A DNA stretch of 64,000 nt. Source: Gammaproteobacteria bacterium. GTDB lineage: Bacteria; Pseudomonadota; Gammaproteobacteria; Natronospirales; REEB76. The number at the start of each line of letters is the position of its first letter. The first letter of the stretch is position 1. Below the pieces are notes generated by a model. It was not told the DNA's origin, searched no databases, and was given only the letters and a program-made list of their open reading frames with translations. Positions 26,527-62,546 of this stretch are shown piece by piece. The stretch covers positions 531-64,530 of the forward strand of contig DATAHN010000085.1 in NCBI GenBank assembly GCA_036263155.1, in the 5' to 3' direction. The translations under genes and the position numbers were made by a program.

Positions 26527-27288
26527 TCACTGCTTGGCGCCGGCAGCGAGCTGCGCGTCGATGAGCGCCTTGAGGTCCGTGTAGGTGGCGCCGCCGATGT
26601 GGCCCTGGCTGTTCACGGCGAACGTGGGCGTGGCGTGCAGGCCCAGCGCCTCGCCGTAACCCTGGCTCAGTACCACCGCCTGGTGGGTGGAGCCGGTACG
26701 GATGCAGCTCAGGATCTTGCCGTGGTCGAGGCCCAGGCTGTCGGTATAGCCGAGGAAGGTATCCACCGCGTTCTTCGAGTCGGCCCACTCGGCCTGCTTG
26801 GCGTAGAGCAGGTCGTGCATCTGCCAGTACTGGTCCTGGTAGCCAGCGCAGCGCGCCACCTGGGCCGCCATCATGGCGTTGTGGTGCTGCTCCTCCAGCG
26901 GCATGTCGAAGAACACGAAGCGCACCTTGCCGGTGTCCACGTACTCCTTGCGCATCTGCTGGATCACGGGCTCGAAGCCTCCGCAGGCGGGGCACTGGAA
27001 GTCGGCGAACTCGCGCACCACCACCGGTGCGTTGCGGTCGCCCACCGCCATGCCCTTCTCGTCATGGCCGGTGTCGAAGGGTATCTGCACCAGGTCGAGA
27101 TTGCTGCCGGAGGCGGCCTTGGTGCGGGAGTGCATGAGCAGGACGCCGCTGTAGACGAGCGCCACGATGAGCAGGGCGATGCCGCCGACCAGCCACAGGC
27201 GCGAGCCCCCCTCGTCCTTCTCGTAGTGCTGGGCATGGACATGCACGTGTTCACGCTCATGGCCGTGTTGCTGGTGCTTCTGCTGCAT
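26527..27288 (-). CDS. DsbA-family thiol:disulfide oxidoreductase, membrane-anchored, His-rich N-terminus
   Basis: 253 aa. There are 7 His in the first 21 residues, one TM helix (LWLVGGIALLIVALVYSGVLL) and a thioredoxin fold with CPAC (EFADFQCPACGGFEP). The RBS AGGGGGA sits just upstream. Confidence 0.8.
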   Translation of the reverse strand: MQQKHQQHGHEREHVHVHAQHYEKDEGGSRLWLVGGIALLIVALVYSGVLLMHSRTKAASGSNLDLVQIPFDTGHDEKGMAVGDRNAPVVVREFADFQCPACGGFEPVIQQMRKEYVDTGKVRFVFFDMPLEEQHHNAMMAAQVARCAGYQDQYWQMHDLLYAKQAEWADSKNAVDTFLGYTDSLGLDHGKILSCIRTGSTHQAVVLSQGYGEALGLHATPTFAVNSQGHIGGATYTDLKALIDAQLAAGAKQ

Positions 27289-27658
27289 GGGATCCCCCTG
27301 GTTCTATTCAGAGTAAATCACTCTGGTATTGGACGCCCCGGCCCTATGGCCTCCACTAGACTATAGCCCGGTCCGCGATATGTCGTCTCGGCGTGGCGCC
27401 GTCCGGCCGGCCCATGTAATAAATAGCGTCCCGCGGGGTCTTTGGACCAGGGGTTACGAGGGGGTGGCGCAAAGGTGCCTCCGATCTCCCCACTAGTCCG
27501 TATCCAGTGCGGGACCGGCTTTGCCGGGACCTCCCTGTGATGGGGAACACGGGCAACTTGTCTCCCGACAGGGGATCGGGTTTTCCGGCCGGGATGGAGC
27601 AATCCGCCCCGGGTGTATCTGGGTAATGAACAACCTACTCCATAGAAGGATTGCAACC

Positions 27659-27922
27659 ATGAACACGACCAAAGTCTCCGGTATCGCCATCGCCGCCGTC
27701 GCCGCCAGCCTGTTCGTGCTGGCCCCGCTCGCCACCGCCGCCGACAGCGCCGCTGCCACCGGCAAGTGCGTGGGTGGCAACGCCTGCAAGGGCGAGAGCG
27801 CCTGCAAGTCCGCCGACCATGCCTGCAAGGGTCAGAACTCCTGCAAGGGCAAGGGCTTCACGGTGGTGACCAAGGCCGAGTGCGACAAGGCCGGCGGCAA
27901 GTTCGAAGGCGACAAGGGCTGA
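27659..27922 (+). CDS. bufA: Bufferin-type RiPP precursor, 6-Cys class (Sec signal + Cys-rich core)
   Basis: 87 aa starting at ATG 27659, with an AAGGA RBS upstream. The signal peptide ends ...LAPLATA|ADS. The core GKCVGGNACKGESACKSADHACKGQNSCKGKGFTVVTKAECDKAGGKF has 6 Cys with C-x5/6-C spacing. It lies directly upstream of the DUF692/DUF2063 genes. Confidence 0.8.
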   Translation: MNTTKVSGIAIAAVAASLFVLAPLATAADSAAATGKCVGGNACKGESACKSADHACKGQNSCKGKGFTVVTKAECDKAGGKFEGDKG

Positions 27923-27953
27923 TCAGCCCTTCCAGTCTCAAGCTTGATGTGAC

Positions 27954-27990
27954 GACCCGGCCGCTCCTTGGCGGCCGGGTCTTCCTTTTA
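27954..27990 (+). terminator. Intrinsic-terminator-like hairpin between the precursor gene and the MNIO gene
   Basis: An 11-bp stem GACCCGGCCGC/GCGGCCGGGTC with a 6-nt loop is followed by TTCCTTTTA. It lies 32 nt after the bufA stop and 19 nt before the bufB GTG. Confidence 0.55.
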
Positions 27991-28008
27991 GAGGGGTAGA
28001 ATCCCGGC

Positions 28009-28908
28009 GTGAGCAAGCAAGACCCCAAGACGCGTCCCTACCTCGGGTTCGGCCTCGGGCTGCGCACCGACCATTACGACGCGATCCTCGCCGAGAAGCC
28101 GGCCCTGGACTGGCTGGAGATCATCTCCGAGAACTACATGGTGGACGGCGGCAAGCCGCTCCACTACCTCGACCGCATCCGTGCGCTCTATCCCATGGTG
28201 ATGCACGGCGTGTCGCTGTCCATCGGCAGCGCCGACCCGCTGGATCGCGAGTATCTGAAGCGCCTGAAGGCGCTGGCGGCGCGGGTCGAACCCCAGTGGA
28301 TATCCGACCACCTGTGCTGGACCGGCGTCGCCGGAAAGAACCTGCATGACCTGATGCCCCTGCCCTACACCGAGGAAGCGGTCGCCCACGTGGCGGCGCG
28401 GGTGCGGGAGGTGCAGGACTTCCTGGGCCGGCAGATCCTGCTGGAGAACGTGTCCAGCTACGTGACCTACACCCAGTCCGCCATGAGCGAGTGGGAGTTC
28501 CTGGCGGCAGTGGCTGAGGCGGCCGACTGCCTGATATTGCTTGATGTGAACAACATCTACGTGAGCAGCCACAACCACGAGTTCGACCCGCGCGACTACC
28601 TGCGCGGTATCCCGGCGGCGCGGGTGCGCCAGTTCCACCTGGCGGGCCACACCCACAACGGCAACATCATCGTGGATACCCACGACCATCCGGTGATCGG
28701 CGACGTGTGGCAGCTCTACGCCGAGGCGTTGCGCGCCTACGGTCCGGTCTCCACCATGATCGAGCGCGATGCCGATATCCCGCCACTCGCGGAGCTGATG
28801 GCGGAACTGGACCAGGCGAGACGCATCGCAGCTCCCATCCTCAAAGGGGCGGTAGCACAAAGTGGAGTGCGGCCGCGACAGGACGTCGCGCTGGAATTGA
28901 CACCATGA
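28009..28908 (+). CDS. bufB: MNIO family (DUF692, MbnB/BufB-like) multinuclear non-heme iron oxidase
   Basis: 299 aa. DUF692 landmarks are present: [58 protein letters not shown] and IERD. Confidence 0.9.
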
Positions 28909-29681
28909 CGCTGCTCAAGCTCGAGCAGGATTTCAAGGACTGCATGCTCGCCAATCGCCTGGACATGGGCGGGCACGTGGTGGGCACGGCGCGAGCCTCC
29001 GCGGAGGAGCGGGTCAAGGTCTACGTGGAAGGCTATCGCCTGCGCCTGCTGGAAGTGCTGCAGGACAACTTCACGGGACTGCACGGTCTCCTGGGAGACG
29101 CGCAGTTCGATGAGATGGGCCGCGCCTACATCGACGTGCATCCTTCCACTCATCCCTCGGTGCGCTGGTTCGGACGGCAGCTCGCCGCGTTCCTGCGCGA
29201 CACTGCTCCCTACTCCGCTCACCCGCATCTCGCGGAGATGGCGGCCTTCGAGTGGGCCCAAGGGCTGGTGTTCGACTCGGCCGACATCGCTTCCCTGGAC
29301 ATGCAGGCGTTGGCGGCGGTGCCGCCCGAGGACTGGGCGCGGGTGGGCTTCGGCTTCCATCCTTCCGTGCAGCGGCTGGACCTCGCCTGGAACGTGCCCA
29401 AGCTGTGGCAGGCGCTGGAAGCGGAGGAAGTCCCACCGGAACCGGATGCTTCCAAGCCCGGCTCATGGCTGCTGTGGCGCAAGGACCTCACCACCCACTG
29501 GCGCTCCTTAGGGCCCGACGAGGCCTGGATGCTGGACGCAGCCCGTGAGGACCGGCGCTTCGGCGAGCTCTGCGAGGGTTTATGCGAATGGCACGCGGCC
29601 GATTCTGTGGCCTTGCAGGCAGCGAGCTATCTCAAACTGTGGTTGAGTGATGGTCTCGTGACTGCCGTCGTGCTGGATTGA
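28905..29681 (+). CDS. bufC: DUF2063 (MbnC/BufC-like) MNIO partner protein
   Basis: The ATG at 28905 overlaps the bufB stop (ATGA). The DUF2063-like N-terminal region is [46 protein letters not shown]. The track ORF start at 28707 was rejected. Confidence 0.8.
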
Positions 29682-30556
29682 ACCTCAAGCCCTTCGCCTT
29701 CCTCGCGCTGATCCCCGCCCTGGCCATGGCTGCCGCAACGCCAGTGCACGTGGATTTCCGGGCCACCGGACTCACGGTGACGGAACCCCAAGTGTTGAAG
29801 TGGATCGGCACGGCCGAGAAAGCCGTCACACGCTACTACGGCCGTTATCCCGTGTCGCAGGTGGACATCGAGGTACGTGCCCATGCCGGCGGCGGCGAGC
29901 CCTCCGGGACCACCTATGGCGACGCGAACGGCGCGCTCATCAGGCTGGGCATCGGCCGGGACATGACGGATGAGGAACTGCAAGCGAGCTGGGTGATGAC
30001 CCACGAGATGGTGCATCTGGCGTTCCCGCGGGTGTCGGACAACCAGCACTGGGCCGAAGAAGGCCAAGCCACCTGGCTGGAGCCCATCGCCCGCGCGCAG
30101 GTCGGCGACCTCAGCGTGGATTACCTGTGGAAGGAGACCCTGCAGGGCATGCCCAAGGGCCTGCCGCAGGCGGACGACCAGGGCCTCGACCACACCGGCA
30201 CCTGGGCGCGCACCTACTGGGGCGGCGCACTCTTCTATCTCATCGCGGACGTCACCATCCGTGAGCGTACCCACAACAAGTTCGGGCTGCAGGATGCGCT
30301 GGCGGCGGTGGTGGCAGCCGGCGGGACCGTGGAGGTCTCCTGGCCGCTGGAGCGTGCTTTCGCCGTGGGCGACAAGGCGGTGGATGTGCCGGTGCTGGAG
30401 GAACTCTACGCCGGGTGGAAGGATAAGCCGGTACCGGTGGACCTGCCGGCGCTGTGGACGAAGTTGGGCGTGGCCTTGAAGGACGGCAAGGTGGTCTACG
30501 ACGACTCGGCGCCGGACGCCGCCATAAGAAAAGCCATCACCGCGCCCCCTCCCTGA
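29678..30556 (+). CDS. Secreted HExxH (gluzincin-like) putative metallopeptidase
   Basis: The TTG at 29678 overlaps the bufC stop (TTGA). The signal peptide is [18 protein letters not shown]|AATP. The zinc motif is MTHEMVHLAFP...HWAEEGQATWLE. The next in-frame ATG would delete the signal peptide. Confidence 0.6.
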   Translation: MNLKPFAFLALIPALAMAAATPVHVDFRATGLTVTEPQVLKWIGTAEKAVTRYYGRYPVSQVDIEVRAHAGGGEPSGTTYGDANGALIRLGIGRDMTDEELQASWVMTHEMVHLAFPRVSDNQHWAEEGQATWLEPIARAQVGDLSVDYLWKETLQGMPKGLPQADDQGLDHTGTWARTYWGGALFYLIADVTIRERTHNKFGLQDALAAVVAAGGTVEVSWPLERAFAVGDKAVDVPVLEELYAGWKDKPVPVDLPALWTKLGVALKDGKVVYDDSAPDAAIRKAITAPPP

Positions 30557-30574: not shown

Positions 30575-30883
30575 TCAGCTCCGTTGCTTGAGCATGGCAT
30601 GCAGGAGCTTGCCACCCCGGTACAGCGCGAGCCCCCTCGTCCACCAGATCCGCGACGGCGTGAAGCGCAGCGCAACCGTCGCCAACAGGGTGATCAGGAC
30701 CGAGACACCCGTGGCCCGCGGATGAGCCCGCACCACGCCGGTGACGCGCAGACCCATCATCAGCGTGCCGATCGGGCCTTGCAGGTCCCGATGGATCGCT
30801 GCGAGCTCGCGGCGCTGCTGCGCAGCCTGGGCGACGAGCCGCTCGCGTCTCAGCGCCAGCTCCCGCTCTCTGGCGTCCATCAT
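30575..30883 (-). CDS. yqjK: YqjK-like protein
   Basis: The ATG at 30883 overlaps the yqjE-like stop (ATGA). The protein is 102 aa with an Arg/Gln-rich helix followed by a hydrophobic segment, as in E. coli YqjK. The longer track ORF (to 31090) was rejected. Confidence 0.5.
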   Translation of the reverse strand: MMDARERELALRRERLVAQAAQQRRELAAIHRDLQGPIGTLMMGLRVTGVVRAHPRATGVSVLITLLATVALRFTPSRIWWTRGLALYRGGKLLHAMLKQRS

Positions 30884-31320
30884 CTCCTGCCGCCGGCGGC
30901 CCCCAGCGCGGCTCCGCCCGGAGGCGCGGTGTTGAGCGCGAACCGGTCCTTGTGCAACTCCTCGAGGCTGGCGGAAAACAGGCGGGATTTCCTGCCGAGC
31001 TGGCGATACAGCAGCAAGCCGGTACCCGCACCCAGCGCGGCGTGGAAAATCACGACCCCCAGCAGGGCCGCGACCCGGTGGCCGTCCCAATTGACGGCCA
31101 CCACCAGGAAGGAAAGGAAGACCAGGGCGAGACCGGCAAAGAAAACAGTGAGGGCGCTCCAGAGCAGTATCTTCGCCAGCCGGAGGCGCTCCTCCGCCAA
31201 CTCGACCGTCAATATCTCCACACGCGTGGCGACCACCGAGATGAAGGTGGCCGCCAGCGTCCGCAGCGACCCCAACAACTCGACCGGGCCCCGGGACGCA
31301 CCCTGGCCCCCCTCGTCCAT
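30880..31320 (-). CDS. yqjE: YqjE-like membrane protein (DUF1469 / holin 3-6 family)
   Basis: 146 aa. VATRVEILTVELAEERLRL is followed by two TM helices and ...RKSRLFSASLEELHKDR, collinear with E. coli YqjE. Confidence 0.65.
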   Translation of the reverse strand: MDEGGQGASRGPVELLGSLRTLAATFISVVATRVEILTVELAEERLRLAKILLWSALTVFFAGLALVFLSFLVVAVNWDGHRVAALLGVVIFHAALGAGTGLLLYRQLGRKSRLFSASLEELHKDRFALNTAPPGGAALGAAGGRR

Positions 31321-31322
31321 GG

Positions 31323-31661
31323 TCAGACCTTGGAAGGCGTCAGCGCGCGCGTTACGACGAGGCCGATCAGGAAGCTGATGCCGCTGGCGATGAGCAGGGA
31401 CCGCCAGGGGTTCTCCTGGACGTAGGCATCCGTGGCCCGCGCCGTAGCCCTGCTTTTCTCGACGACGAACCGCTCGGCCGAAGCCAGCCGCTCAGCCACC
31501 TTGGCGCTGACGGCAGTCATGTTCTCGCTGCCCTGGGCGGCGGCCTCTCCCAGCAAGCGCTCGCCACCGGAGACGACGGACTTGAAATCCGAGGATAGCT
31601 GTTCCTTGCCGGCGGAGATGCGATCCCTGCTGGACTGCTGTGAAGGGGTATTGCTGCTCAT
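31323..31661 (-). CDS. yqjD: YqjD/ElaB family (DUF883) tail-anchored protein
   Basis: I placed the start at ATG 31661 (MSSNTPSQ). The C-terminal region YVQENPWRSLLIASGISFLIGLVVTR matches the DUF883 signature ENPW plus a TM helix. Confidence 0.7.
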   Translation of the reverse strand: MSSNTPSQQSSRDRISAGKEQLSSDFKSVVSGGERLLGEAAAQGSENMTAVSAKVAERLASAERFVVEKSRATARATDAYVQENPWRSLLIASGISFLIGLVVTRALTPSKV

Positions 31662-31918
31662 TGATATGTACTCCTGGTGACTTGAGTGGTTCCGAAGGCC
31701 GGATCTCACTTCAGCGACGATGCCGTGAAGCCGGCTCAGATGACCATACAGCATGGAAGGAGCACTCTTTAGTGCACTGGTCCTCAGAACGGACGCGACA
31801 CGAAAGAAATCCTCCGCGCGATCCGCGCGAGCATGAAGCGGGAGCGGCACAAGATGGGTCGCGCCGTCACGACATGGGCGACGCAGGGATGCAACGGCCG
31901 GCTCAGTCTGCCGGAAAG

Positions 31919-31944
31919 AGGACGGGGCCTCACGGCCCCGTCCT
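31919..31944 (-). terminator. GC-rich hairpin downstream of the bufABCD operon (possible terminator)
   Basis: The stem is GACGGGGCC/GGCCCCGTC with loop TCAC. On the minus strand it is followed only by CTTTCC, a weak U-tract. It lies 150 nt after the doxX stop. Confidence 0.4.
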
Positions 31945-32093
31945 TGTCACAGCTCTCAGGCTGGGCGCAGCTTGAGGAACAATTTCATCAGCAAATAGTC
32001 CACCGAGTGCTGCCCCGGGTCCGCCGCATGCGGCGGACACCCCGCCAGGGATGGCGGGGCGGGGAGGTGCTCCATGGATGGGTTATTTCACAA

Positions 32094-32594
32094 CTACCAG
32101 CCAGATGGCCGGAGTTTCGGAAACCAACGCATCAGCAAGTAATCAAGAGACAACTTGCCCGGACCGTACACGAAGGTCACCAGCAACATCAGACCCCAGA
32201 TCTTGTGGTCATTGAAGCCGTCGCCGAAGAGGCCGGTCCAGAAGCCATCCGGCCACAGGTCCGGGTAGGACACCACGCAGATGATGTTATAGACGAACAT
32301 GAACCCCGCCGAGAGGCGGCCGAACAGGCCGATGGCGAGCAGCACCGGCACCGTGAGCTCGATGCCGGTGCCGAGGTAGGCGGCGAAGTCCGGCGGCAGC
32401 AGCGGCACGTGGTACTCGTTCTCGAAGATGGCGATGGTCGAATCCATGTTGTGGATCTTCACCAGGCCGGCGCGGAAGAACGCGTCCGCCACCCACAGGC
32501 GCAGCGCCAGGTCCACCAGCGGCCTGAGGTACTGCAACCAGCCCACACCCTTGTAGTAATAGTCATGCGCTCGCGCGAAAGCCTTCATCCCCAT
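32094..32594 (-). CDS. bufD: DoxX family membrane protein (BufD position)
   Basis: 166 aa with 4 TM segments. LALRLWVADAFFRAGLVK is DoxX-like. It is the last gene of the DUF2282-DUF692-DUF2063 operon. Confidence 0.8.
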   Translation of the reverse strand: MGMKAFARAHDYYYKGVGWLQYLRPLVDLALRLWVADAFFRAGLVKIHNMDSTIAIFENEYHVPLLPPDFAAYLGTGIELTVPVLLAIGLFGRLSAGFMFVYNIICVVSYPDLWPDGFWTGLFGDGFNDHKIWGLMLLVTFVYGPGKLSLDYLLMRWFPKLRPSGW

Positions 32595-32610
32595 CCTCCC
32601 CTCGCTTGTT

Positions 32611-33369
32611 TCAGAAATAGAAGCTGGTCAGGATCTCGTCCCGCACCAGCGCCGCGAACTTCTCCTGCACGTCGAAATGCGGTTCCTGCTGCAGTGCCGC
32701 GCCGCAGGCATCCTCGAAGGTCCCACCCCGGCACAGCCGCCTCAGGAAGGCATATTCCCCCGGCGTGAGCAGGCGCATCTCCACGTCCAGCCTGGGCCGC
32801 GAGAGCAGCACGCATTCGCCGCCACGCGTGAAGTCCAGCTCTCCCTCGGGCTCCGCCTGCTGGCAGAACTGCCAGATGCTGAGGATGGGGAAGCGCGAAT
32901 CCAGGGCCCGCGCCGCGGGCTGATGATGGAAGCACAGTTCAGGCAGTCGCTCCTCGGGCACCTGTGCCAGGGAGTGCAGGTCCATGGGCAGGTGCGGCGC
33001 CGCGATGGCGGTCTGCAGGCGGCGCCATTCCAGCGCCGCCACGTCGCCGAGATACGGCAGCGACGCGGCAGGGGCGTAGCCCTGCAGGAACACCGGGAAG
33101 GCGCCGCCGTAGTCCTGCACGTTGCCGCTATGGGAAGGGTTGTGCGCGATGTACTCAGCCGCCGCGGCGGCGAAGAACGCCTCCCCTACCAGCCGCTCGG
33201 TCACGGGATAGGTCGCCCGCAGGGCGCCCTGCAAGGCGCTGAGATGGTTGTGGCGGTAGACCTGCAGGCGGCGCGCACCCGGCAGGCCGCGCTCACGCAG
33301 CGGCAGCGCCGCGTCTCCGCCACGCAGGGCATGGGCGAACCGGCGTTGCAGTTCAGGCAGCGGCTGCAT
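32611..33369 (-). CDS. bufC: DUF2063 (BufC) MNIO partner protein
   Basis: 252 aa. QRRFAHALRGGD...RRLQVYRHNHLSALQGALRATYPVTERLVGEAFFAAAAAEYIAHNPS is a typical DUF2063 N-terminal domain. It overlaps the bufB 3' end by 17 nt. Confidence 0.8.
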   Translation of the reverse strand: MQPLPELQRRFAHALRGGDAALPLRERGLPGARRLQVYRHNHLSALQGALRATYPVTERLVGEAFFAAAAAEYIAHNPSHSGNVQDYGGAFPVFLQGYAPAASLPYLGDVAALEWRRLQTAIAAPHLPMDLHSLAQVPEERLPELCFHHQPAARALDSRFPILSIWQFCQQAEPEGELDFTRGGECVLLSRPRLDVEMRLLTPGEYAFLRRLCRGGTFEDACGAALQQEPHFDVQEKFAALVRDEILTSFYF

Positions 33370-34213
33370 GGCACCGTCCGAGGTGGCTCTCGGCCTTGGC
33401 GGCCTCGGTCATGAGCGTGCCGAACGACGGCAGATCGTTGTCCCATTCGATGAGCGTGGGCTTGGGGCCCATGAGCTCGAGGGCGTGGACGTACAGCGCC
33501 CACACCGGGTCCGCCACCGGTCGGCTGTGGCTGTCTATTAGAAGAGCACCCGGCTCCAGCTCCCTGCGCAGGTGGCCGGCGAGGTGGATCTCCTCCACGT
33601 CACGGGCCGGGATGGACGCGAGGTAGCGTCGCGCATCGAAGCCGTGGTTCTCGGCGCTCACGTAGATGTTGTTCACGTCGAGCAGGATGCCGCAGCCGGA
33701 ACGGGCAGCCACCTCCCGCAGGAAGTCCCATTCCGGGATCGTCGAGTGCTCGAACTCGAGATAGCTTGAGACATTTTCGACCAGCAAGCGCCGGCCGAGC
33801 CGGTCCTGGGCCTCGGCGATGCGCGCGGTCACGTGCGCGAGCGCTTCCTCGGTGTAGGGCAACGGCAGGAGGTCATGCAGGTGGGAACCGGCGGCGGTCC
33901 AGCACAGGTGCTCGGAGACGAGCGCGGGACTGAAACGCGCGATGGCCTGCTTGAGGTGCTGCAGGTGCGCCGCGTCCAAGGGATCGCAGCCGCCCAGGGA
34001 CAGGCCCACGCCGTGCAGGCTCAGGGCATAGTCGCGGCGCACGGCATCCAGTTCGGCGACCGCGCGGCCGCCGGGCGCGAAGTAGTTCTCGCTGTGGACT
34101 TCGAACCAGGCGACGGCGGGCTTGTGCTCGAGCACTTCCCGCACGTGGGGCGCCCGGAGGCCGATCCCCGCGCGTGCGGGGACCGGGTCCGGACGGGATA
34201 CCGTGGTATCCAT
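33353..34213 (-). CDS. bufB: MNIO family (DUF692, BufB) oxidase
   Basis: I placed the start at ATG 34213 (MDTTVSRPDP). It carries [56 protein letters not shown] and IEWD. The track ORF extension to 34606 runs through bufA and was rejected. Confidence 0.9.
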   Translation of the reverse strand: MDTTVSRPDPVPARAGIGLRAPHVREVLEHKPAVAWFEVHSENYFAPGGRAVAELDAVRRDYALSLHGVGLSLGGCDPLDAAHLQHLKQAIARFSPALVSEHLCWTAAGSHLHDLLPLPYTEEALAHVTARIAEAQDRLGRRLLVENVSSYLEFEHSTIPEWDFLREVAARSGCGILLDVNNIYVSAENHGFDARRYLASIPARDVEEIHLAGHLRRELEPGALLIDSHSRPVADPVWALYVHALELMGPKPTLIEWDNDLPSFGTLMTEAAKAESHLGRCHAAAA

Positions 34214-34233
34214 GGCGAATCCCCTGTCGGGAC

Positions 34234-34503
34234 TCAGCCCTTCTTGGCGGGAGCGGTAGTGGTGCCGCCGGCCAGCTTCTCGCACAGCCCCTTCGGCAGG
34301 TACACGAAGGCATCCGCCTGGCGGTCCTTGGTAGCGCTGCCGGCGCAGGAGTTGGTGGCGGTGGCGCAGTCGTTCTGGTGAGCGGCGGCCACGCCGAAGC
34401 ACTTCTCCTGGGCGGGCTTGTCGGCCGCCATGGCGGACGCGGCGGCGAGGGTCGCGACACCCGCCACGGCGGCGGTGATGGCGAGCTTGATGTCTCTGTT
34501 CAT
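34234..34503 (-). CDS. bufA: Bufferin precursor, DUF2282 (4-Cys) class
   Basis: 89 aa with a GGAGGA RBS. The signal peptide ends ...AAASAMA|ADK. The core EKCFGVAAAHQNDCATATNSCAGSATKDRQADAFVYLPKGLCEKLAGG matches the DUF2282 pattern. Confidence 0.85.
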   Translation of the reverse strand: MNRDIKLAITAAVAGVATLAAASAMAADKPAQEKCFGVAAAHQNDCATATNSCAGSATKDRQADAFVYLPKGLCEKLAGGTTTAPAKKG

Positions 34504-34844
34504 GGGTCCAATCCTCCACTTGGGTTTTGAAGATTTTTCGCGGGAATCCCCGCATCCAGACTACTCGAAAGCCGCCCGGATGGAGGCACCCGCCTCTGCC
34601 TCCCAAGACCGCCGCCCCCCCCGATTTGTTACGCCGGAGGCGGTTTCCTGACTGATTTCATTAGGTAATCCGGGCCGGGGCCTGTATAATGCCCCCCGAG
34701 TTTGACGTGGCACGATCCGGTCTCAAGTCCCCGCAAACCTGTCGCGGCGTACCTTCCAAAGTATCCCCGATCCTTAAGTAACCCATCCATGCCTGGACCG
34801 GCAGTGCGCCTCAAGTGCGCCAGCAGGCTTCTCCAGGAGCAAAA

Positions 34845-36158
34845 ATGTCATTCGATTCCCTCGGCCTTTCGGCCGAACTGCTGCGTGCTGTCAAGGAACA
34901 GGGCTACACCGAGCCCACCCCGGTACAGGCGCGCGCCATCCCGGTGGTCATCTCCGGCCGCGACCTGCAGGCCGCCGCCCAGACGGGCACCGGTAAGACC
35001 GCAGGCTTCACCCTGCCCCTGCTGCAGCGGCTGCATACCGTCGCCGCCCCCGCCGGGGGACACAAGTATCCGGTGCGGGCGCTGATCCTCACCCCCACCC
35101 GCGAACTCGCCGCCCAGGTGGCCGAGAGCGTCTCCGCCTACGGCAAGTACCTGCGCTTCTCGAGCGCGGTGATCTTCGGCGGCGTGAACATCAACCCCCA
35201 GATCGACAAGCTGCGCCGCGGCGTGGACATCGTGATCGCCACCCCGGGCCGGCTGCTGGACCACGTCGAGCAGCGAACCATCGACCTCTCAAGGGTCGAG
35301 ATCCTGGTGCTGGACGAGGCGGACCGCATGCTGGACATGGGCTTCATCCGCGACATCCGCCGGGTGCTGGCGCTGCTGCCGGTGAACCGGCAGAACCTCA
35401 TGTTCTCCGCCACCTTCTCCGACGAGATCCGCGCGCTCGCCGCCGGCATCTTGCGCGCGCCCGAGACCATCGACGTGGCGCCGCGCAACTCCACCGCGGA
35501 GCGCGTCAGCCAGCGCATCTACCCCGTGGACCAGGGCAAGAAGCGCGCGCTGCTCTCCAAGCTCATCACCGAGGGCGACTGGAAGCAGGTGCTGGTGTTC
35601 ACCCGCACCAAGCACGGCGCCAACCGCCTGGCCGAGCAGCTCGGCAAGGACGGCATCCATTCCGCCGCCATCCACGGCAACAAGAGCCAGGGTGCGCGCA
35701 CGCGCGCGCTGGCGGACTTCAAGTCCAACCGGGTGCGGGTGCTGGTGGCGACCGACATCGCCGCGCGCGGGCTGGACATCGACCAGCTGCCGCACGTCGT
35801 CAACTACGAGCTGCCGAACGTGCCGGAGGATTACGTGCACCGTATCGGCCGCACCGGCCGTGCCGGCAGCTCTGGCGAGGCCATCTCGCTGGTGGCGGGC
35901 GCCGAGCGCAGTCTGCTGCGGGACATCGAGCGGCTGCTGCGGGCCGAGCTGCCGCGCACGGTAGTGCCAGGCTTCGAGCCGGGCAGCGGCGGTGGCGAGG
36001 AACCTGACAACCGTCCGCCGCGCCAGCACCATGGACAGCGCCGCCACTCCGGCGGCGGCCAGCGCCAAGGCGGTGGACATCACCATGGCCACGGGCGTGG
36101 CCAGGGTCGCGGCAATGGCCAGCGCCGCAACGGCAACAGCGGCAGCGGCAATCGCTAG
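34845..36158 (+). CDS. rhlE: ATP-dependent DEAD-box RNA helicase RhlE
   Basis: I placed the start at ATG 34845, with an AGGAG RBS. It has the Q motif, [34 protein letters not shown] and a basic Gly/Arg/His-rich tail. Confidence 0.9.
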
Positions 36159-55155: not shown

Positions 55156-57681
55156 TTAAATCTCCAGGTCGGGTGCACCGCGCAGCAGGCGGTCGCACTG
55201 GTCGGCGGGCAACGGCGGACTGAACAGGAAGCCCTGCATCAGGTGGCAGCCCTCCGCCGCCAGCTGCTTCATCTGCTCCACCGTCTCCACACCTTCGGCG
55301 ATGACACGGAACTTGAGCCGGTCCGCCAGGGTCAGGATCACCCGCGCGATGGCGGCGTCGTACTCGTTGGTGGCGATGCCCTGCACGAAGGCGCGGTCGA
55401 TCTTGATGATGTCTACCGGCAGGTGCTTGATGTACATCAGCGAGGAATGGCCGGTGCCGAAGTCGTCGAGGGCGATGCGCACGCCCAGGGACTTCAGGTC
55501 CTCAAGGATGCGGATGCTGGCCTTCACGTCCTGCATGATCAGGCTTTCGGTGATCTCGAACTGCAGTGCCGAGGGCGGCAAGCCCGAAGCCATGAGCGCG
55601 TCCTCCACCACCCGCTTGAGGTTCTGCATGGTGAACTGGCGCACCGAGAGGTTCACCGCCACGTGCAGGCGCTTGGCGCGCGAGGACTTATACCACAGGC
55701 CAACCTGGCGGCAGGCCTCCTCCAATACCCACTGGCCGAGGGGCACGATCAGTCCGGTCTCTTCCGCGAGCTGGATGAACTCGCCTGGCGGCACCAGGCC
55801 GATCTCAGGATCCTGCCAGCGCACCAGCGCTTCCACGCCCACCACGCCGCCTTCCCGGATGTCGAACTGCGGCTGGTAGTGCAGCACCATCTCGTTATGC
55901 TTGAGGGCGCGGCGCAGTGCGTTCTCGCTGGAGAGGCGCTGCATCGCCTTGGCGTGCATGTCCTGGGTGAAGAACTGGTAGTTGTTGCGACCACGCTCCT
56001 TGGCCTTGTACATGGCGCTGTCGGCGTTCTGCAGCAGCGCCTGCACCGTGGTGCCATCGCCCGGATACATGCTCACGCCGATGCTGGCGCCGAGATTCAC
56101 CTCGGTGCCCTCCAGCAGCATGGACTCGGACAGGGACGTCAGAATGCGCTCGCAGGTCAGCGTGACCGACTGGGGCTCGTTGCAGTCTTCGATGATCACT
56201 GTGAACTCATCCCCGCCAAGGCGGGCCACCGTATCTGAAGTACGCACGCACTCCAGCAGGCGCTGGCCGATCTGGTAGAGCATCTGGTCGCCCACGTTGT
56301 GGCCGAGCGAGTCGTTCACGCTCTTGAAGCGGTCCACGTCGATGAACAGCAGGGCCATGGGCTTGCGCGAGCGGCGGGCACGGGCCAGCGACTGTTCCAT
56401 GCGGTCCAGGAACAGGGTGCGGTTTGGCAGTCCGGTGAGATGATCATAGTTCGCCAGCCGCCGCATCTCCTCCTCTGCCTGCTTGCGATCAGCAGCCGAG
56501 AGGGCCAACGCCATGAAGTCAGCCAGCGCGCTTGCGTAGTTCATCTCCTCGGCGGTCCAGGGGCGCACGCCCCCGGTCCACTCATGGAATACCACGCCGC
56601 GCACCTTGTATCCGTGGCGGAACGGCACGAACAGCACCGCGCTGGTGTTGTGCGGCTTGAAGTAGTGGTGCCAGACCTTGGCAAGGCCCGCGTCGCGCTC
56701 GATGTCAGGCACCGGCACCGCTCGGCTCTGCTGCAGGTCCTCGAAGAGCTGCGGGCACTCATCCTTCTCGATGTTCGCGCGGGACTGGGTGGAATGCTCA
56801 CCGCGCTCGTAGATGTGCACGCAGCGCATGGCGGTGCCGATGGAGTTCATCAGCCAGATGCTGATGCGCTCGCACTGGGTGGCCTGGGTCGAGCGCGAGC
56901 TGATCACCTCGAAGGCGGCCCGCAGGTCGCCGGTGGAGATGCTGGGGTCGCGGGTGAGCTCGTAGAGCTGGGAATCCTTGTGGCGGGTCTTCTCTTCCTC
57001 GCGCTTGAGCCGGGTCTCGAGCCGGGTGCGCTGGTTGACCTCGTTGTCCAGCTCCTCGGTCATGCCCTCGTACGAGAGCTTCAGCCGCAGCCGTTCCGCG
57101 ATCTCGCCCTGCTGGGCGCGGGCGATCAGGCACAGGGTGACCATGACCACCGCGCTCACGAACGCCACCAGCAGGCCCGCCGAACCCGGCTCCATCGCCA
57201 AGCGTACGTCGATGGGCAGGAACAGCATGGTGAGATAGGCGATGTAGAACATCACGTTACCGGCGAACATCATGGCCGGCAGCGAGCCCATGGCCACCAG
57301 CAGCACCAGCAGTGTGACCTGGTGCTGCATCGAACCCGGCGTGAACATCATCCAGCCGGCGCCGCCCCAAGCGATGCCTAGCAGTGCGGTGAGCACCAGG
57401 AAGAGCTTCTGCCAGTGTGTTGCGGTGGTGATGGACTCGATGTCGCCGTCGGCGCGCCAGCTCAGCCAGATGCGGATGCCGCTGACCAGCACCATGCAGG
57501 CGAGCCAGGACAGCATCACCACATGGTTGATCTCAGGCCAGAATGCCACCGCCGCCAGCAGCGCGGCGCAGATCACCGCTACATCGGTCCAGCGACCGAA
57601 TTTACGAAGCGCATTGACCCGAGCCAGCTGCACATGCTGGTCGAAGGACATGAATTTACGAACTGGCTGCTCTGCCGCCAC
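55156..57681 (-). CDS. Membrane sensor GAF-GGDEF-EAL protein (c-di-GMP turnover)
   Basis: 841 aa. It has an N-terminal ~6-TM domain, a coiled coil, a GAF-like region, GGDEF (RLGGDEFTVII), EAL (VEALVRW) and DDFGTGHSSL. Confidence 0.9.
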   Translation of the reverse strand: MAAEQPVRKFMSFDQHVQLARVNALRKFGRWTDVAVICAALLAAVAFWPEINHVVMLSWLACMVLVSGIRIWLSWRADGDIESITTATHWQKLFLVLTALLGIAWGGAGWMMFTPGSMQHQVTLLVLLVAMGSLPAMMFAGNVMFYIAYLTMLFLPIDVRLAMEPGSAGLLVAFVSAVVMVTLCLIARAQQGEIAERLRLKLSYEGMTEELDNEVNQRTRLETRLKREEEKTRHKDSQLYELTRDPSISTGDLRAAFEVISSRSTQATQCERISIWLMNSIGTAMRCVHIYERGEHSTQSRANIEKDECPQLFEDLQQSRAVPVPDIERDAGLAKVWHHYFKPHNTSAVLFVPFRHGYKVRGVVFHEWTGGVRPWTAEEMNYASALADFMALALSAADRKQAEEEMRRLANYDHLTGLPNRTLFLDRMEQSLARARRSRKPMALLFIDVDRFKSVNDSLGHNVGDQMLYQIGQRLLECVRTSDTVARLGGDEFTVIIEDCNEPQSVTLTCERILTSLSESMLLEGTEVNLGASIGVSMYPGDGTTVQALLQNADSAMYKAKERGRNNYQFFTQDMHAKAMQRLSSENALRRALKHNEMVLHYQPQFDIREGGVVGVEALVRWQDPEIGLVPPGEFIQLAEETGLIVPLGQWVLEEACRQVGLWYKSSRAKRLHVAVNLSVRQFTMQNLKRVVEDALMASGLPPSALQFEITESLIMQDVKASIRILEDLKSLGVRIALDDFGTGHSSLMYIKHLPVDIIKIDRAFVQGIATNEYDAAIARVILTLADRLKFRVIAEGVETVEQMKQLAAEGCHLMQGFLFSPPLPADQCDRLLRGAPDLEI

Positions 57682-57742
57682 GCTCCAACCCCTGAAGCGC
57701 TAGTTTGCCGGATGCCCAAGCTCCCTCCCAGGAGATTTGAGC

Positions 57743-57765
57743 ACATAATCTATAAAAGATTATGT
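57743..57765. promoter_or_regulatory. Perfect 9-bp inverted repeat in an AT-rich intergenic spacer (candidate operator)
   Basis: ACATAATCT-ataaa-AGATTATGT lies 62-84 nt upstream of the start at 57681. There is no U-tract, so it is unlikely to be a terminator. Confidence 0.4.
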
Positions 57766-57812
57766 CATATTGAAGCGATAAATCCAGCTTAAATGCTCAC
57801 TTAGTGTGCGAA

Positions 57813-60347
57813 CTAGACGGCGAGATCAACTATTCCACGCAACAGCCGGTCGCAATCCTCCTCTTCCAGGGGCGGACTGAAGAGATAACCTTGCATCAAA
57901 TGGCAGCCCTGAGCATGCAGACTCTGCATCTGGGCCACACTCTCCACCCCCTCGGCGATCACCGAAAGTTTCAGGCTATCCCCAAGGGCGATGACGGTCC
58001 GGGCGATGGCGGCGTCATATTGGCTCTTGTGGATGACATCCACGAACTCGCGGTCGATCTTGAGCACGTCCACCGGCAAGCGCTTGAGGTAAAGCAGCGA
58101 GGAATGGCCGGTGCCGAAATCGTCCAGGGCGATGCGCACCCCCAGTACCTTGAGCTGCTCCAGCACCCCGATGCTGTTCTCCACGTCCCGCATGATCAGG
58201 CTCTCGGTGATCTCGAGCTGCAGTGCCGCCGGCGGCAACCCCGAATCCTGCAAAGCGCCTCGCACAACCTCCACCAGGTTCTTCATGCCAAACTGGCGCA
58301 CCGACAGGTTCACCGCGATGTGGAACGGACGGCCGTTGGCGGCATCATGCCATTGCCGCGCCCGCTTGCAGGCCTGCTCAAGGACCCACTGGCCTAGCGG
58401 CACGATCAGCCCGGTCTCCTCTGCCAGGGGTATGAACTCCCCCGGCCAGATGAGACCTAGCTCGGGGTCGTGCCAGCGCACCAACGCCTCTAGGCCCACG
58501 ATGCCACCCTTCTCCACGTCGAATTGCGGCTGGTAGTGCAGCACCATCTCAGTGCGCTGCAGGGCCTTGCGCAGGGCATTCTCACGGGAGAGGTGCAGCA
58601 TCGCCCGCGCATGCATGTCCTGGGTGAAGAACTGGTAGTTGTTGCGGCCGCGCTCCTTGGCCTTGTACATGGCACTGTCGGCGTTCTGCAGCAGCATGTC
58701 GCCGTCCTCGCCGTCGCCGGGGAACAGGCTGATGCCGATGCTGCAGGTGAGGTTCACATCGGTCTGGCCGAGGGAGATGGGTTCCACCACCGCGGACAGG
58801 ATGCGTTCGCAGACCATGGTGATGTACTCGGCATCCTGGCAGTTCTCCAGGATCACGGTGAACTCGTCGCCGCCGAGGCGGGCCACGGTATCCGAGGCGC
58901 GCACGCAGGCCAGGAGGCGCTTGCCGATGGAACGCAGCACCAGGTCGCCGGCGTGATGCCCCAGGGAATCGTTGATGCTCTTGAAACGGTCCACGTCTAT
59001 GAACAGCAGCGCGGTGCGCTGGCGGGCACGGCGTGCCTTGGCCAGCCCCTGGGCCAGGCGGTCCAGGAACAGCGAGCGGTTCGGCAGGCCCGTGAGCCGG
59101 TCGTAGTTGGCCATCTCGCGCAACTTATCCTCGGCCGCGCGCCGGTCGTTGGAAGTGAGCCCCAAGGCCACGAAATCCGCCAGTGAACTCGCGAAGCTTG
59201 CTTCGTCGCGGGTCCACTCCCGCGTGCCGCCCTGGTACTCGTGAGTGATGATGCCGCGCACCTTGTGGCCTTGCCGGAATGGCGCCACCAGCAGCGCGGT
59301 GATGCCGTTGGGCTTGAGATACTCCTGGCGCAACTCGCTGATGCGGGCGTCGCCGGCCACGTCGCTTACCGCATAGGTGCGTGTCTCCTGGATCGAGTGG
59401 AACAGGGAAGGACTGCGGCGCTTGTCTATGAGTTCCCCGCCGCCGTTGCCGTGCTCGCCGCCACTGTAGACATGCACGCAGCGCAGGGTGGATCCGCTGT
59501 CATCCAGGAACCATATGCCGATGCGCCTGCAGTTCATGGCCTGCGCGGCCTTCTCGCTGATGACGGTGAGGGCGCCCTTGAGATCGCCGCCCGAGATGGT
59601 GGATTCGCGCGCCAAGTCCAGCAGCGACTGGCTCTGACGTCGCATCCGCTCCTCTCCCTCGCGTAGCTTGGTCTCGATGCGGGTGCGCTCCGACACCTGG
59701 CCGGTGAGCTCTTCCACGATGGTGGCGTAGGAGAAGCGCAGGTTGAGCCCTTCCACGAGCCGCTCGTTAGCGATGCTCGCCACCGCGCACATCAGGGCCG
59801 CGGCGGCGGCGGCCAGCACCAGGATCAACAAAGAGACACGGTCGGCGCCCATGATCAGCCGCGAGGCCGCGGGCACCAGCACCAGCGCCAGGAACGGGAA
59901 ATAATGCAGCACGCTGGCACTGAGCAAGGGGACCGCGAGCGCCGCCACGCAGGCCATGAGCAGCATCCCCGGTGCGGCGGTGCTCCAGTAGCCAGGCAGC
60001 ACCAGTCCGGCGCCGAGGGCGCCCCAGCTTGCGGCAAGCAGCAGTGTAAGGGCGAGGTAGCCGCGCTGCCAGGGCTGCGCCTCCTCCACCGGGATGGTGC
60101 GCCGCCGGAACAGGATTCCAAAGCAGGCCCGCAGCAGTGCACTCAGGGCGAGCGCCACCGCGCACCCTGCAGGATAGCTACCGCCCTCCTCGCCCCAATA
60201 CACCCAGAAGAAGACTGCGGCGGCAGCCAGGCTCGGCCAGTCTGCCGCCCAGCCGAAGCGATACAGCAGGTTGGTCTGTTCGGCCCGGACCTGCCGCGCG
60301 ACCTCTTCGTTATGTATCTCGGGACAGACCGCAGTGGTAATGGGCAC
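57813..60347 (-). CDS. Membrane sensor GAF-GGDEF-EAL protein, tandem paralog of 55156-57681
   Basis: 844 aa with the same architecture as its neighbour. It has RLGGDEFTVIL, LEALVRW and DDFGTGHSSL, and shares long identical stretches with the neighbour (e.g. LLQNADSAMYKAKERGRNNYQFFTQDMHA). Confidence 0.9.
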   Translation of the reverse strand: MPITTAVCPEIHNEEVARQVRAEQTNLLYRFGWAADWPSLAAAAVFFWVYWGEEGGSYPAGCAVALALSALLRACFGILFRRRTIPVEEAQPWQRGYLALTLLLAASWGALGAGLVLPGYWSTAAPGMLLMACVAALAVPLLSASVLHYFPFLALVLVPAASRLIMGADRVSLLILVLAAAAAALMCAVASIANERLVEGLNLRFSYATIVEELTGQVSERTRIETKLREGEERMRRQSQSLLDLARESTISGGDLKGALTVISEKAAQAMNCRRIGIWFLDDSGSTLRCVHVYSGGEHGNGGGELIDKRRSPSLFHSIQETRTYAVSDVAGDARISELRQEYLKPNGITALLVAPFRQGHKVRGIITHEYQGGTREWTRDEASFASSLADFVALGLTSNDRRAAEDKLREMANYDRLTGLPNRSLFLDRLAQGLAKARRARQRTALLFIDVDRFKSINDSLGHHAGDLVLRSIGKRLLACVRASDTVARLGGDEFTVILENCQDAEYITMVCERILSAVVEPISLGQTDVNLTCSIGISLFPGDGEDGDMLLQNADSAMYKAKERGRNNYQFFTQDMHARAMLHLSRENALRKALQRTEMVLHYQPQFDVEKGGIVGLEALVRWHDPELGLIWPGEFIPLAEETGLIVPLGQWVLEQACKRARQWHDAANGRPFHIAVNLSVRQFGMKNLVEVVRGALQDSGLPPAALQLEITESLIMRDVENSIGVLEQLKVLGVRIALDDFGTGHSSLLYLKRLPVDVLKIDREFVDVIHKSQYDAAIARTVIALGDSLKLSVIAEGVESVAQMQSLHAQGCHLMQGYLFSPPLEEEDCDRLLRGIVDLAV

Positions 60348-60612
60348 GCTCGGAGCCTCTCCACGCCTTGCGGAAAATCAGGTTCGTTTGGAACCCACCC
60401 TTCTTGACGCGCCAAACCCTGGCCTTGAGACGAACGCTCCCCGTAGAAGGATATTAGTTAACTTAAATTCACTATACCAGCGCCGGCTTTCCCCGGGTGA
60501 ATACCCTAGGAATGCACCATATCGCGCATGGATTTGAGCAAAACATCACAAACCCCTCATGACCGGCAAGGCAGGATGCGCTTGCCAGATTACTAAAAGA
60601 AGGGACTCTTAC

Positions 60613-62499
60613 ATGTTTCTCCAAAGCATAACTCCACGCGCGCTGCAGTTCGCGGTGCTCTCCACACTGCTCGCGCTCGCCGCCTGCGGCGGCTCCGGCT
60701 CGAACCTCGCCTCCAACGGTGGTGGTGGCGGAAGCGGTGGCGGTGGTGGCGGGATCACGGACTCCAACGTGGACTGCACCCAACCCAAGTCGACGGATGA
60801 CGACGGCTGTGTCTATGTATCCATGACGGATGAGGCCGGCGACTTCCTCACCTATACCGTCAGTATCACCCGCTTCACCATCACCAAGCGCGACGGCACC
60901 GAAGTCAACGTCCTGCCTCATCCCATCACAGTGGATTTCGCGCAGTACAATGACCTCAGCGAGTACCTGGCGCTGGGAGGCATCTCGACCGGCGACTACC
61001 AGGGCGGCAAGATCACGCTCGACTTCACCCACGCGGATATCCAGGAACAGAGTGCTTCCGGGACGGCCGTGCAGCTGACGCCGGTGGATGGCAGCGGCAA
61101 GACCCTCACGACCCAGGATGTCACCTTCACCCTGGATTCGGACCACCCGTTCGATCCGGCGGCAGGCGTGCCACACGTCCTCGGCGTGGACTTCGACCTC
61201 GACGCCTCCAATAGCATCAACAACACCAGCAAGACCGTCACCGTGCGGCCCTTCCTGGTCGCCACGGTGGACCCGAGCGACGGCAAACTGCAACGGATCC
61301 AGGGATCGCTGGACAGCGTGGACACCGGCAGCAGCGACTTCACGCTTGAGCTGCATCCATTCCGCGCCACCAGCGGAGACTATGGCAAGCTGGCAGCGCA
61401 CGGCATGGCATCCACCGTCTATGTGGTGGACGGCAAGATGTCTCTGGGCAGCACCGGCCTGGCGGCCTTGAAATCCGCGGGTAGCGGCACGGCCGTGCTG
61501 GCTCGGGGCCAGTTCGACTTCAGCAGCCACCGCTTCGTCGCTGACCGGGTGTTCGCAGGTTCCTCGACCCCCGGCGGCACCTCCGACACAGTCGAGGGTC
61601 TCGTGACGAAGCGCAGTGGCAACACCCTCACCCTGCGTGGCGCCAACATCTATCGTGCCGGCGGCAGCGCGAGCTTCCACGATACCGTGACCGTGGTCGT
61701 CGATACGGCGACCGTGGTGCGTGAGGCTGAGCGACCCAAGACCACCTTCCACAGCGACGACATCTCGGTGGGACAGAAGCTGTTGGTTTTCGGTGACCTG
61801 ACGGCCGCTACCCGCCTGGATGCGACCGGCGGTTTTGCCTTGCTCGAAGAGACCCCTCTTGACGGCTCGGTGCTGACCATCAGCAGCGGCGGCAGCGGCA
61901 CCCAGGCCAGCATCAACCTGGATGTGCAGGCCATCGGCGGTCGCGACGTGAGCACGTTCGACTTCTCGGGTACCAATAGCGACAGCGCGAACTACGAAGT
62001 GCGCCTGCCCTGCAGCTGCCTGAGCACCGGCGTGAACACCAGCGATCCAGTGCGGGTCACCGGCTTCGTGACGCCCTTCGGTTCGGCCCAGCCTGACTTC
62101 AAGGCGCAGACGCTGGTGGACTATGACGTCGGCGGCTCGACCGTGATCGCCACCTGGCCGGGCACTGGTACCGCAAGCGCCTTCACGGACATCGATGTCA
62201 ACAGCGGCATCGTGCTGGACCTGGATGGCTCATCGCACCACAGCCTGCGCCGGGGCGGCGCGACGCTGGACCTCAAGAGCCTGGCGACCGCCCCCACCAT
62301 CAAGGGCGCGGACATCGGCAGCTACTCGCTGCTCCAGGGAGGGGAAGTGCATGGCTACGTGCGCTACAGCGACTTCGTGGCAGCCTTGCAGGACGCTCTC
62401 TCCGGCGGAGCCAAGGTACGCGGCTTCTTCGCCCGCGGTGGGTTCAGCATCACGACGGATACATTGGATTCGAATGATATCCTCGTATCGCTGGACTGA
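60613..62499 (+). CDS. Large beta-rich lipoprotein (DUF4382/DUF5666-like)
   Basis: I placed the start at ATG 60613. The lipobox LLALAACGG is followed by a Gly/Ser linker (GGGGGSGGGGGG). The VYVSMTDEAGDFLTYTVSITRFTITKRDGTEVNV region resembles DUF4382 (from memory). Confidence 0.55.
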   Translation: MFLQSITPRALQFAVLSTLLALAACGGSGSNLASNGGGGGSGGGGGGITDSNVDCTQPKSTDDDGCVYVSMTDEAGDFLTYTVSITRFTITKRDGTEVNVLPHPITVDFAQYNDLSEYLALGGISTGDYQGGKITLDFTHADIQEQSASGTAVQLTPVDGSGKTLTTQDVTFTLDSDHPFDPAAGVPHVLGVDFDLDASNSINNTSKTVTVRPFLVATVDPSDGKLQRIQGSLDSVDTGSSDFTLELHPFRATSGDYGKLAAHGMASTVYVVDGKMSLGSTGLAALKSAGSGTAVLARGQFDFSSHRFVADRVFAGSSTPGGTSDTVEGLVTKRSGNTLTLRGANIYRAGGSASFHDTVTVVVDTATVVREAERPKTTFHSDDISVGQKLLVFGDLTAATRLDATGGFALLEETPLDGSVLTISSGGSGTQASINLDVQAIGGRDVSTFDFSGTNSDSANYEVRLPCSCLSTGVNTSDPVRVTGFVTPFGSAQPDFKAQTLVDYDVGGSTVIATWPGTGTASAFTDIDVNSGIVLDLDGSSHHSLRRGGATLDLKSLATAPTIKGADIGSYSLLQGGEVHGYVRYSDFVAALQDALSGGAKVRGFFARGGFSITTDTLDSNDILVSLD

Positions 62500-62522
62500 A
62501 ATCGAAGACGAGATCGGACGTG

Positions 62523-62546
62523 GACGGCCCGCGCGAGCGGGCCGTC
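62523..62546. terminator. GC-rich hairpin between convergent genes
   Basis: The stem GACGGCCCGC/GCGGGCCGTC has loop GCGA and only weak T-tracts on either side. Confidence 0.45.

Follow-up and report, generated by a model that had tools for sequence, protein, structure and literature searches.

Bufferins were described in 2024 and surveyed in 2025. They are made from DUF2282 precursors that carry a Sec signal peptide and four cysteines (PMC11626156, PMC12452194), and the core of their biosynthetic gene clusters (BGCs) consists of precursor, MNIO, DUF2063, and DoxX genes (PMC12452194). In the case of the Caulobacter buf1 product, the signal peptide is cleaved and a mass decrease of 10 Da, equal to two thiooxazoles and one disulfide, is observed; BufB and BufC are both required and together suffice for this modification, while DoxX is dispensable, and the bufferin is periplasmic, binds both Cu(I) and Cu(II), and provides a growth benefit under copper (PMC11626156). 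The central cysteines are the ones modified, and the outer ones form the disulfide (PMC12452194). Later work favors 5-thiooxazole as the product of all clusters that combine an MNIO with a DUF2063-type partner, and the class name captophorins was proposed (PMC13097082). Here, we report the analysis of a four-gene locus, bufA1B1C1D1 (buf1), located in a 64-kb stretch of gammaproteobacterial contig DATAHN010000085.1 (the whole stretch is referred to below as the window). The best explanation of the locus, to which we give a probability of about 85%, is that it represents an operon for bufferin biosynthesis of the Buf1 type, carried by an uncultured soil gammaproteobacterium.

Organization of the buf1 operon

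The four genes of the buf1 locus are co-directional and occupy positions 32094–34503 of the minus strand, where the earlier note on this DNA had placed them exactly to the base:

34234–34503, minus strand: bufA1, 89 amino acids; ATG start codon with a GGAGGA Shine-Dalgarno sequence 7 nt upstream
33353–34213, minus strand: bufB1, 286 amino acids; begins 20 nt past the bufA1 stop codon
32611–33369, minus strand: bufC1, 252 amino acids; its ATG lies 17 nt within the 3' end of bufB1
32094–32594, minus strand: bufD1, 166 amino acids; begins 16 nt past the bufC1 stop codon

The “small gaps or overlaps” reported between these genes measure +20, −17, and +16 nt at the bufA1/bufB1, bufB1/bufC1, and bufC1/bufD1 junctions, respectively, and bufB1 and bufC1 are translationally coupled via their 17-nt overlap. 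A second bufD1 ATG at position 32588 has a better Shine-Dalgarno spacing and would give a product of 164 amino acids. JGI and Logan metagenome contigs that code for an identical BufA1 come from soil metagenomes; independent gene calls on these contigs give the same products of 89, 286, 252, and 166 amino acids, and the identical metagenome precursor carries PF10048:BufA1 as its precomputed Pfam label.

The precursor matches Pfam PF10048 (DUF2282/BufA1) with 79.2 bits (E-value 2.2e-22; cut-off 22.4). Its residues 1–26 were assigned, by rule of thumb, as a Sec signal peptide of the signal peptidase I type, with R3 and K6 in the n-region, a hydrophobic segment at residues 7–22, a putative cleavage site A24-M-A26|A27, and no lipobox cysteine. 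The predicted core comprises 63 residues, with CysI–CysIV at precursor positions 35, 46, 53, and 74. A Sec signal followed by a four-cysteine DUF2282 core is what had been claimed for this 89-residue protein, and the peptide strings quoted in support (...ASAMA|ADK, EKCFGV, NDC, NSCAG, and LPKGLCEKLAGG) are all exact. An alignment of 62 BufA1 homologues revealed 11 invariant positions, E33, C35, G37, N44, D45, S52, C53, D60, D64, G72, and C74, while C46 is conserved in at least 90% of the sequences. An identical BufA1 is already deposited and annotated in NCBI, as [quoted passage not shown]; remoter homologues are named there “BufA1 family periplasmic bufferin-type metallophore”. The earlier opinion that there is nothing new about the operon as such is right.

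The maturase, BufB1, scored 361 bits against PF05114 (MNIO, formerly DUF692; cut-off 25) and passed the cut-off of the NCBIfam bufferin maturase equivalog NF050167 (MNIO_BufB; 386.6 bits, cut-off 310). It failed the HvfB and MbnB equivalogs (252 against a cut-off of 360, and 61 against a cut-off of 325, respectively), and was also under the cut-offs of the ApyH and ChrH equivalogs. The closest solved structure is 3BWW, a DUF692 protein (E-value 3e-45). In a HMMER alignment, BufB1 residues H102, E146, D179, N182, H210, D227, and H229 correspond to H90, E133, D163, N166, H192, D208, and H210 of MbnB, which we take to be iron ligands; two further ligand positions, H67 (in HGV) and E256 (in TLIEWD), were assigned by motif. 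Judged from the alignment and the motifs, nine of nine MNIO iron-ligand positions are present in BufB1.

BufC1 matches PF09836 (DUF2063/HvfC_N) over residues 6–95 with 87 bits (cut-off 27.2), and consists of this N-terminal domain and a C-terminal part resembling an RRE, the recognition element of peptides that are made by ribosomes and modified after translation (RiPPs). The NCBIfam HvfC model aligned with residues 7–235, but the score of 51.8 bits was under the cut-off of 142, and BufC1 therefore belongs to a related family rather than to the HvfC equivalog. A sequence search of the PDB revealed no relative of BufC1. BufD1 matches DoxX (PF07681) with 56.8 bits (cut-off 23.6), DoxD with 24.8 bits, and HvfX of NCBIfam with 55.8 bits (cut-off 80). 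A likeness to HvfC and HvfX that stays below the cut-offs is what would be expected for members of the Buf branch, and not of Hvf. The earlier note had proposed that profile hidden Markov models be used to check the DUF2282/DUF692/DUF2063/DoxX assignments, which were to be given up if the models did not support them. Since all four Pfam scores exceed the curated cut-offs, every assignment is upheld.

A scan in which each species was represented by one genome returned 577 relatives of BufB1, the closest of which, at 75% identity, is encoded by a gammaproteobacterial metagenome-assembled genome. BufA, BufB, BufC, and BufD homologues were mapped with phmmer in the best 80 of the 577 loci, and gene orders were counted in those 66 of the 80 that had enough flanking sequence:

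ABCD: 46 of 66 loci, including two AABCD and one ABCCD
ABC: 12 of 66 loci
BCAD: 3 of 66 loci
other orders: 5 of 66 loci

As ABCD is the commonest order among relatives, buf1 shows the modal architecture. The proposed match to the published bufABCD architecture also holds, with families, order, signal peptide, cysteine core, and compactness all in agreement with the descriptions of bufferin operons (PMC11626156, PMC12452194). All features of a Buf1 BGC that can be tested from sequence are present at this locus. Thus, buf1 is an intact, real Buf1-type bufferin operon of an already known kind.

The upstream motif shared with buf2

The variant cluster that had been reported to lie 2 kb away from buf1 exists. 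This cluster, buf2, occupies positions 27659–30556 of the plus strand and converges on buf1, its end being 1.5 kb from the bufD1 stop codon. The regions upstream of bufA1 and bufA2 contain a common bipartite motif, GTAAYAAAT-N12/13-GGTCTT:

34605–34632, minus strand: candidate promoter of buf1, of a type used by sigma factors of extracytoplasmic function (ECF), GTAACAAAT-N13-GGTCTT; its 3' end is ~100 nt upstream of the bufA1 ATG
27416–27442, plus strand: second copy of the motif, GTAATAAAT-N12-GGTCTT, 217 nt upstream of bufA2

A search with GTAAYAAAT-N11-14-GGTCTT returned exactly two matches in the 64 kb and none in 100 shuffles. When the bufA1 upstream region was compared with that of the relative at 75% identity (locus L005), the two boxes, GTAACAAAT and GGTCT, were found to be conserved, while the spacer was not. 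In locus L087, which belongs to a related gammaproteobacterium, a relaxed pattern (GTAAYA-N15-17-GGTC) had four matches with 0.06 expected. Three of the four contain the full GTAAYAAAT box and are located upstream of bufA2, at the same position relative to the gene as in the window, and upstream of each of two tandem bufA1 genes. The tandem copies (positions 9103–9828 of L087, minus strand) each have their own promoter-like motif and are separated by a hairpin. Similar sites are found upstream of bufA1 in loci L009, L012, and L067.

In Caulobacter, both buf1 and buf2 are driven by sigma-F (PMC3511200, PMC11626156), whose site is GTAACC-N16-CGAA (PMC3511200). The first box of the window motif matches the −35 half of this site. 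Exact sigma-F-type sites are present upstream of bufA1 in L053, L069, L081, and L084; altogether, a sigma-F-like site precedes bufA1 in 7 of 74 related loci, while ~0.6 would be expected from background (a ~12-fold excess). NrsF genes adjoin the L053 and L081 operons, and two ECF sigma genes lie 1.3–2.5 kb upstream of the L067 operon. Induction by metal stress via an ECF sigma factor (the SigF/NrsF system) is a feature of a subset of Buf1 BGCs. The sequence data suggest that buf1 and buf2 have a common ECF-sigma promoter, and that the sigma factor is encoded outside the window.

The motif is the one addition of this analysis to the known description of bufferins. It indicates that a recognizable promoter motif of the ECF type can be common to buf1 and buf2 in the absence of a neighboring sigF-nrsF pair, and offers a handle for locating the regulator and the remaining regulon in an uncultured soil lineage.

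If the motif is a promoter, the bufA2 leader would be ~215 nt long (27443–27658, plus strand), whereas that of bufA1 would be ~100 nt. In L087, motif and bufA2 are separated by the same long distance. The bufA2 leader has no match in Rfam; a search of the whole window against Rfam likewise returned no RNA family. In the interval 31300–34900, a σ70 promoter scan made no call and a terminator scan produced only chance-level matches. Downstream of the operon, the following structure was found:

31999–32078, minus strand: GC-rich twin hairpin beginning 16 nt past the bufD1 stop codon; minimum free energy −55 kcal/mol, z = −3.2 relative to shuffles; no U-tract

The terminator scan missed the twin hairpin because the latter lacks a T-run; it may mark the end of the operon.

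A long conserved block at 34640–34760 was also considered as the buf1 promoter and rejected: its plus strand contains a perfect TATAAT (34685–34690), which makes the block more likely to belong to the divergent DEAD-box helicase gene (34815–36158, plus strand), as its 5' leader. Between bufA1 and the start of that gene, strong conservation covers 34640–34814 in the window, L005, and L087, and this stretch probably serves the helicase mRNA as an extended, conserved 5' leader.

Predicted product and alternative functions

By homology with the Caulobacter vibrioides system, the following sequence of events can be proposed. BufA1 would be synthesized with its Sec signal peptide. Its central cysteines, Cys46 and Cys53, would be oxidized in the cytoplasm by BufB1, an iron enzyme, with the aid of BufC1, a protein of the DUF2063/RRE type, and are predicted to become 5-thiooxazole rings. 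The precursor would then be exported by Sec and cleaved after Ala26, and a disulfide would be formed between Cys35 and Cys74. The predicted monoisotopic mass of such a mature BufA1, with two thiooxazoles and one disulfide, is 6342.99 Da. The folded 63-residue peptide would remain in the periplasm, where its thiooxazoles would bind excess Cu(I)/Cu(II) and thus buffer copper stress. BufD1, the DoxX protein, would be an accessory membrane protein, unnecessary for the modification. Transcription of buf1 probably starts from the sigma-F-like, ECF-sigma promoter located ~100 nt upstream of bufA1. Since buf1 and buf2 carry the same upstream motif, their activation may be joint and depend on a sigma/anti-sigma pair whose genes lie outside the window. 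We infer the thiooxazole chemistry, the copper function, and the regulation of this locus, whereas its intactness, its gene content and order, the family memberships, the conservation of cysteines and metal ligands, and the common upstream motif were read from the sequence.

Several points weigh against this view. The signal peptide is a rule-of-thumb assignment. The AlphaFold2 model of BufA1, built with the 62 homologues, consists of the signal helix, strands at residues 32–36 and 66–70, and a short helix after residue 74. It is a low-confidence model (predicted local distance difference test score, pLDDT, 63) that is compatible with the two-strand, short-helix fold of PMC11626156 and does not amount to independent support; at this pLDDT, it is too weak a guide to the CysI–CysIV geometry. 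A recognizable motif of the kind found upstream of bufA1 is present in only 7 of the 74 related loci, and is therefore lineage-restricted rather than general to Buf1 operons; moreover, Caulobacter has CGAA where GGTC is the proposed −10 box here. Finally, Pfam searches of the 64-kb window, which has stretches without gene calls at about 11.6–12.2, 13.9–15.9, and 51.7–52.7 kb, revealed no ECF sigma, NrsF, copA, cueO, cus, or other metal- or copper-resistance gene; the neighbors are housekeeping genes, such as metG, nth, genes of the pyruvate dehydrogenase complex, proS, ilvC, and prfC.

This last observation bears on the alternative that survives best, namely that the same machinery makes the same thiooxazole peptide in response to another stress, be it gold, cadmium, mercury, chromate, reactive chlorine, or oxidants. 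The first descriptions of homologous operons were as gold-induced genes, and in Caulobacter both chromate and cadmium induce the operons via sigma-F (PMC3511200, PMC11626156); the Azospira SigF/NrsF pair is reported to respond to hypochlorite (PMC4436054); bufferins fused to MerC point to functions involving other metals, and DoxX has been connected with oxidative or sulfur stress (PMC12452194). The direct functional data for the DUF2282 class, however, concern copper binding and copper protection only (PMC11626156), and in the wider class all characterized relatives bind copper (PMC13097082). We therefore consider another stress role unlikely.

The chemistry would be different, and metal binding with it, if BufB1 made methanobactin-like pairs of oxazolone and thioamide instead of 5-thiooxazoles. 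The two structures are isomers that differ by an exchange of oxygen and sulfur, and the products of closely related MNIOs (oxazolin and MovA) were initially assigned as oxazolone/thioamide (PMC11252979, PMC13097082). These products have since been reassigned to 5-thiooxazole, which all characterized clusters with an MNIO and a DUF2063-type partner install (PMC13097082; 10.64898/2025.12.15.693703; 10.64898/2026.07.17.739211). Given in addition the distance of BufB1 from MbnB seen in the equivalog score (61 bits versus the cut-off of 325), oxazolone/thioamide formation appears very improbable. That buf1 is a silent or decaying copy from which no mature Buf1 is made, its job being done by buf2, is hardly credible: two bufferin clusters do lie 1.5 kb apart, and the functionality of all of the multiple BGCs in a genome is posed as an open question in the landscape paper (PMC12452194), but buf1 has four intact frames, good ribosome-binding sites, and conserved cysteines and iron ligands, and the locus and its upstream motif are kept in relatives at 75% and ~64% protein identity.

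Neighboring genes and known systems

A Buf1-type operon making a copper-buffering peptide thus remains the preferred explanation of buf1, which as a known member of its kind adds one cluster to the thousands of Buf1 clusters catalogued (PMC12452194). It is useful as a clean standard, from within the same DNA, against which the adjacent buf2 can be judged. Any novelty of the neighborhood lies not in buf1 but in two of the genes surrounding it, the peptidase-like gene of buf2 and a DsbA-like gene:

26527–27288, minus strand: gene of a DsbA-like Thioredoxin_4 protein with a CPAC active site, a membrane anchor, and an N-terminus rich in His (MQQKHQQHGHEREHVHVHAQHYEKD)
27659–27922, plus strand: bufA2
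28009–28908, plus strand: bufB2
28905–29681, plus strand: bufC2
29678–30556, plus strand: fourth buf2 gene, 292 amino acids; its start overlaps the bufC2 stop codon by 4 nt (translationally coupled)

The product of the fourth buf2 gene has a signal peptide and a HEMVH...EE motif, and searches of Pfam, NCBIfam, and PDB sequences found no match to it. It is a member of a large family whose proteins are annotated as “hypothetical”, and in which E110, H113, and E127/E128 are invariant and H109 is nearly so. In its confident AlphaFold model (pLDDT 93.5), the fold is like that of the catalytic domains in M61/M1 gluzincin aminopeptidases (Foldseek E-value 4e-7, TM-score 0.55–0.62). Bufferin clusters of L087 and of L085, an Acidobacteriia contig, contain homologues; in L086 this is not the case. 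The MNIO landscape paper makes no mention of a peptidase (PMC12452194).

The DsbA-like gene is divergent from bufA2 both in the window and in L087. Its product could oxidize bufferin disulfides, or might work in the manner of the copper-linked ScsC proteins.

Taken together, these genes admit a broader, tentative picture, in which a “bufferin island”, co-regulated and specific to the lineage, would have buf1 as one of its halves and be made of the His-rich DsbA-like oxidoreductase, bufA2B2C2 with the M61/M1-like peptidase, and bufA1B1C1D1. The common sigma-F-like promoter would be GTAAYAAAT-N12/13-GGTCTT, the sigma factor would be encoded elsewhere, and the peptidase, a periplasmic zinc enzyme, would trim or recycle bufferin. 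We regard this as possible but doubtful; if true, a peptidase that trims or recycles bufferin would add to this RiPP class a so far undescribed kind of processing.

Three small genes separate buf1 from buf2 (30575–31680, minus strand) and code for a DUF883_C/YqjD-like protein, a Phage_holin_3_6/YqjE-like protein, and a protein of 102 amino acids without a family. This block is missing in L087, where the two clusters abut, and so represents a lineage-specific insertion or deletion. At the far end of the window (55156–63998), three large GGDEF-EAL proteins are encoded within 9 kb; two of the three are paralogues that lie side by side and contain GAF domains. An open reading frame of 646 amino acids located between the GGDEF-EAL genes (60538–62499) has no Pfam match.

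Among the known systems, methanobactin MbnABC resembles buf1 in that an MNIO modifies cysteines of a ribosomal peptide to yield a copper ligand, and in that its MNIO has iron-ligand residues in common with BufB1. The system differs in its partner protein, since MbnC is not a DUF2063 protein, and in its product, a small chalkophore that is secreted for copper acquisition and bears oxazolone/thioamide groups, rather than a periplasmic copper buffer. Membership of buf1 in the methanobactin group was ruled out on the basis of the MbnB score (61 < 325), the DUF2063 partner, and the DUF2282 precursor.

The HvfABCX/oxazolin system of Haemophilus influenzae, fontiphorin, and gonophorin, like buf1, combine an MNIO, a DUF2063-type partner, and DoxX, and their products, made from Sec-exported Cys-rich precursors, bind copper and carry 5-thiooxazoles (PMC11252979, PMC13097082). 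The precursors themselves are different, being largely unstructured with EGKCG repeats (“captophorins”), while BufA1 is a four-Cys DUF2282 mini-protein. Membership in this group, too, was ruled out, since BufA1 contains no EGKCG repeats and all three Hvf models scored below their cut-offs (HvfB, 252 < 360; HvfC, 51.8 < 142; HvfX, 55.8 < 80). The gig (gold-induced genes) operon of Cupriavidus metallidurans and “gig-like” operons are, by description, of the same DUF2282-DUF692-DUF2063-DoxX type and metal-induced (PMC11626156); before the bufferin work, operons of the gig type were known from expression and genetics only.

The comparison with Caulobacter was made by families, gene order, and published description. 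The buf1ABCD operon of Caulobacter vibrioides (CCNA_03363-03366; PMC11626156) consists of the same four families in the same order as the window operon, and both genomes also contain a paralogous buf2 cluster without DoxX. The paralogues have diverged to a similar extent, being 51% (B1/B2) and 28% (C1/C2) identical in the window, and 43% and 23% identical in Caulobacter (PMC3511200). The GTAAC −35-like box of the window matches the Caulobacter sigma-F site, while the putative −10 elements, GGTC and CGAA, respectively, differ. Unlike Caulobacter, the window host is an uncultured gammaproteobacterium with no adjacent sigF-nrsF, and its buf2 cluster, only 1.5 kb away and convergent with buf1, contains an extra peptidase-like gene. 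Thus, with gene families, order, and features shared, the locus matches the Caulobacter buf1ABCD system.

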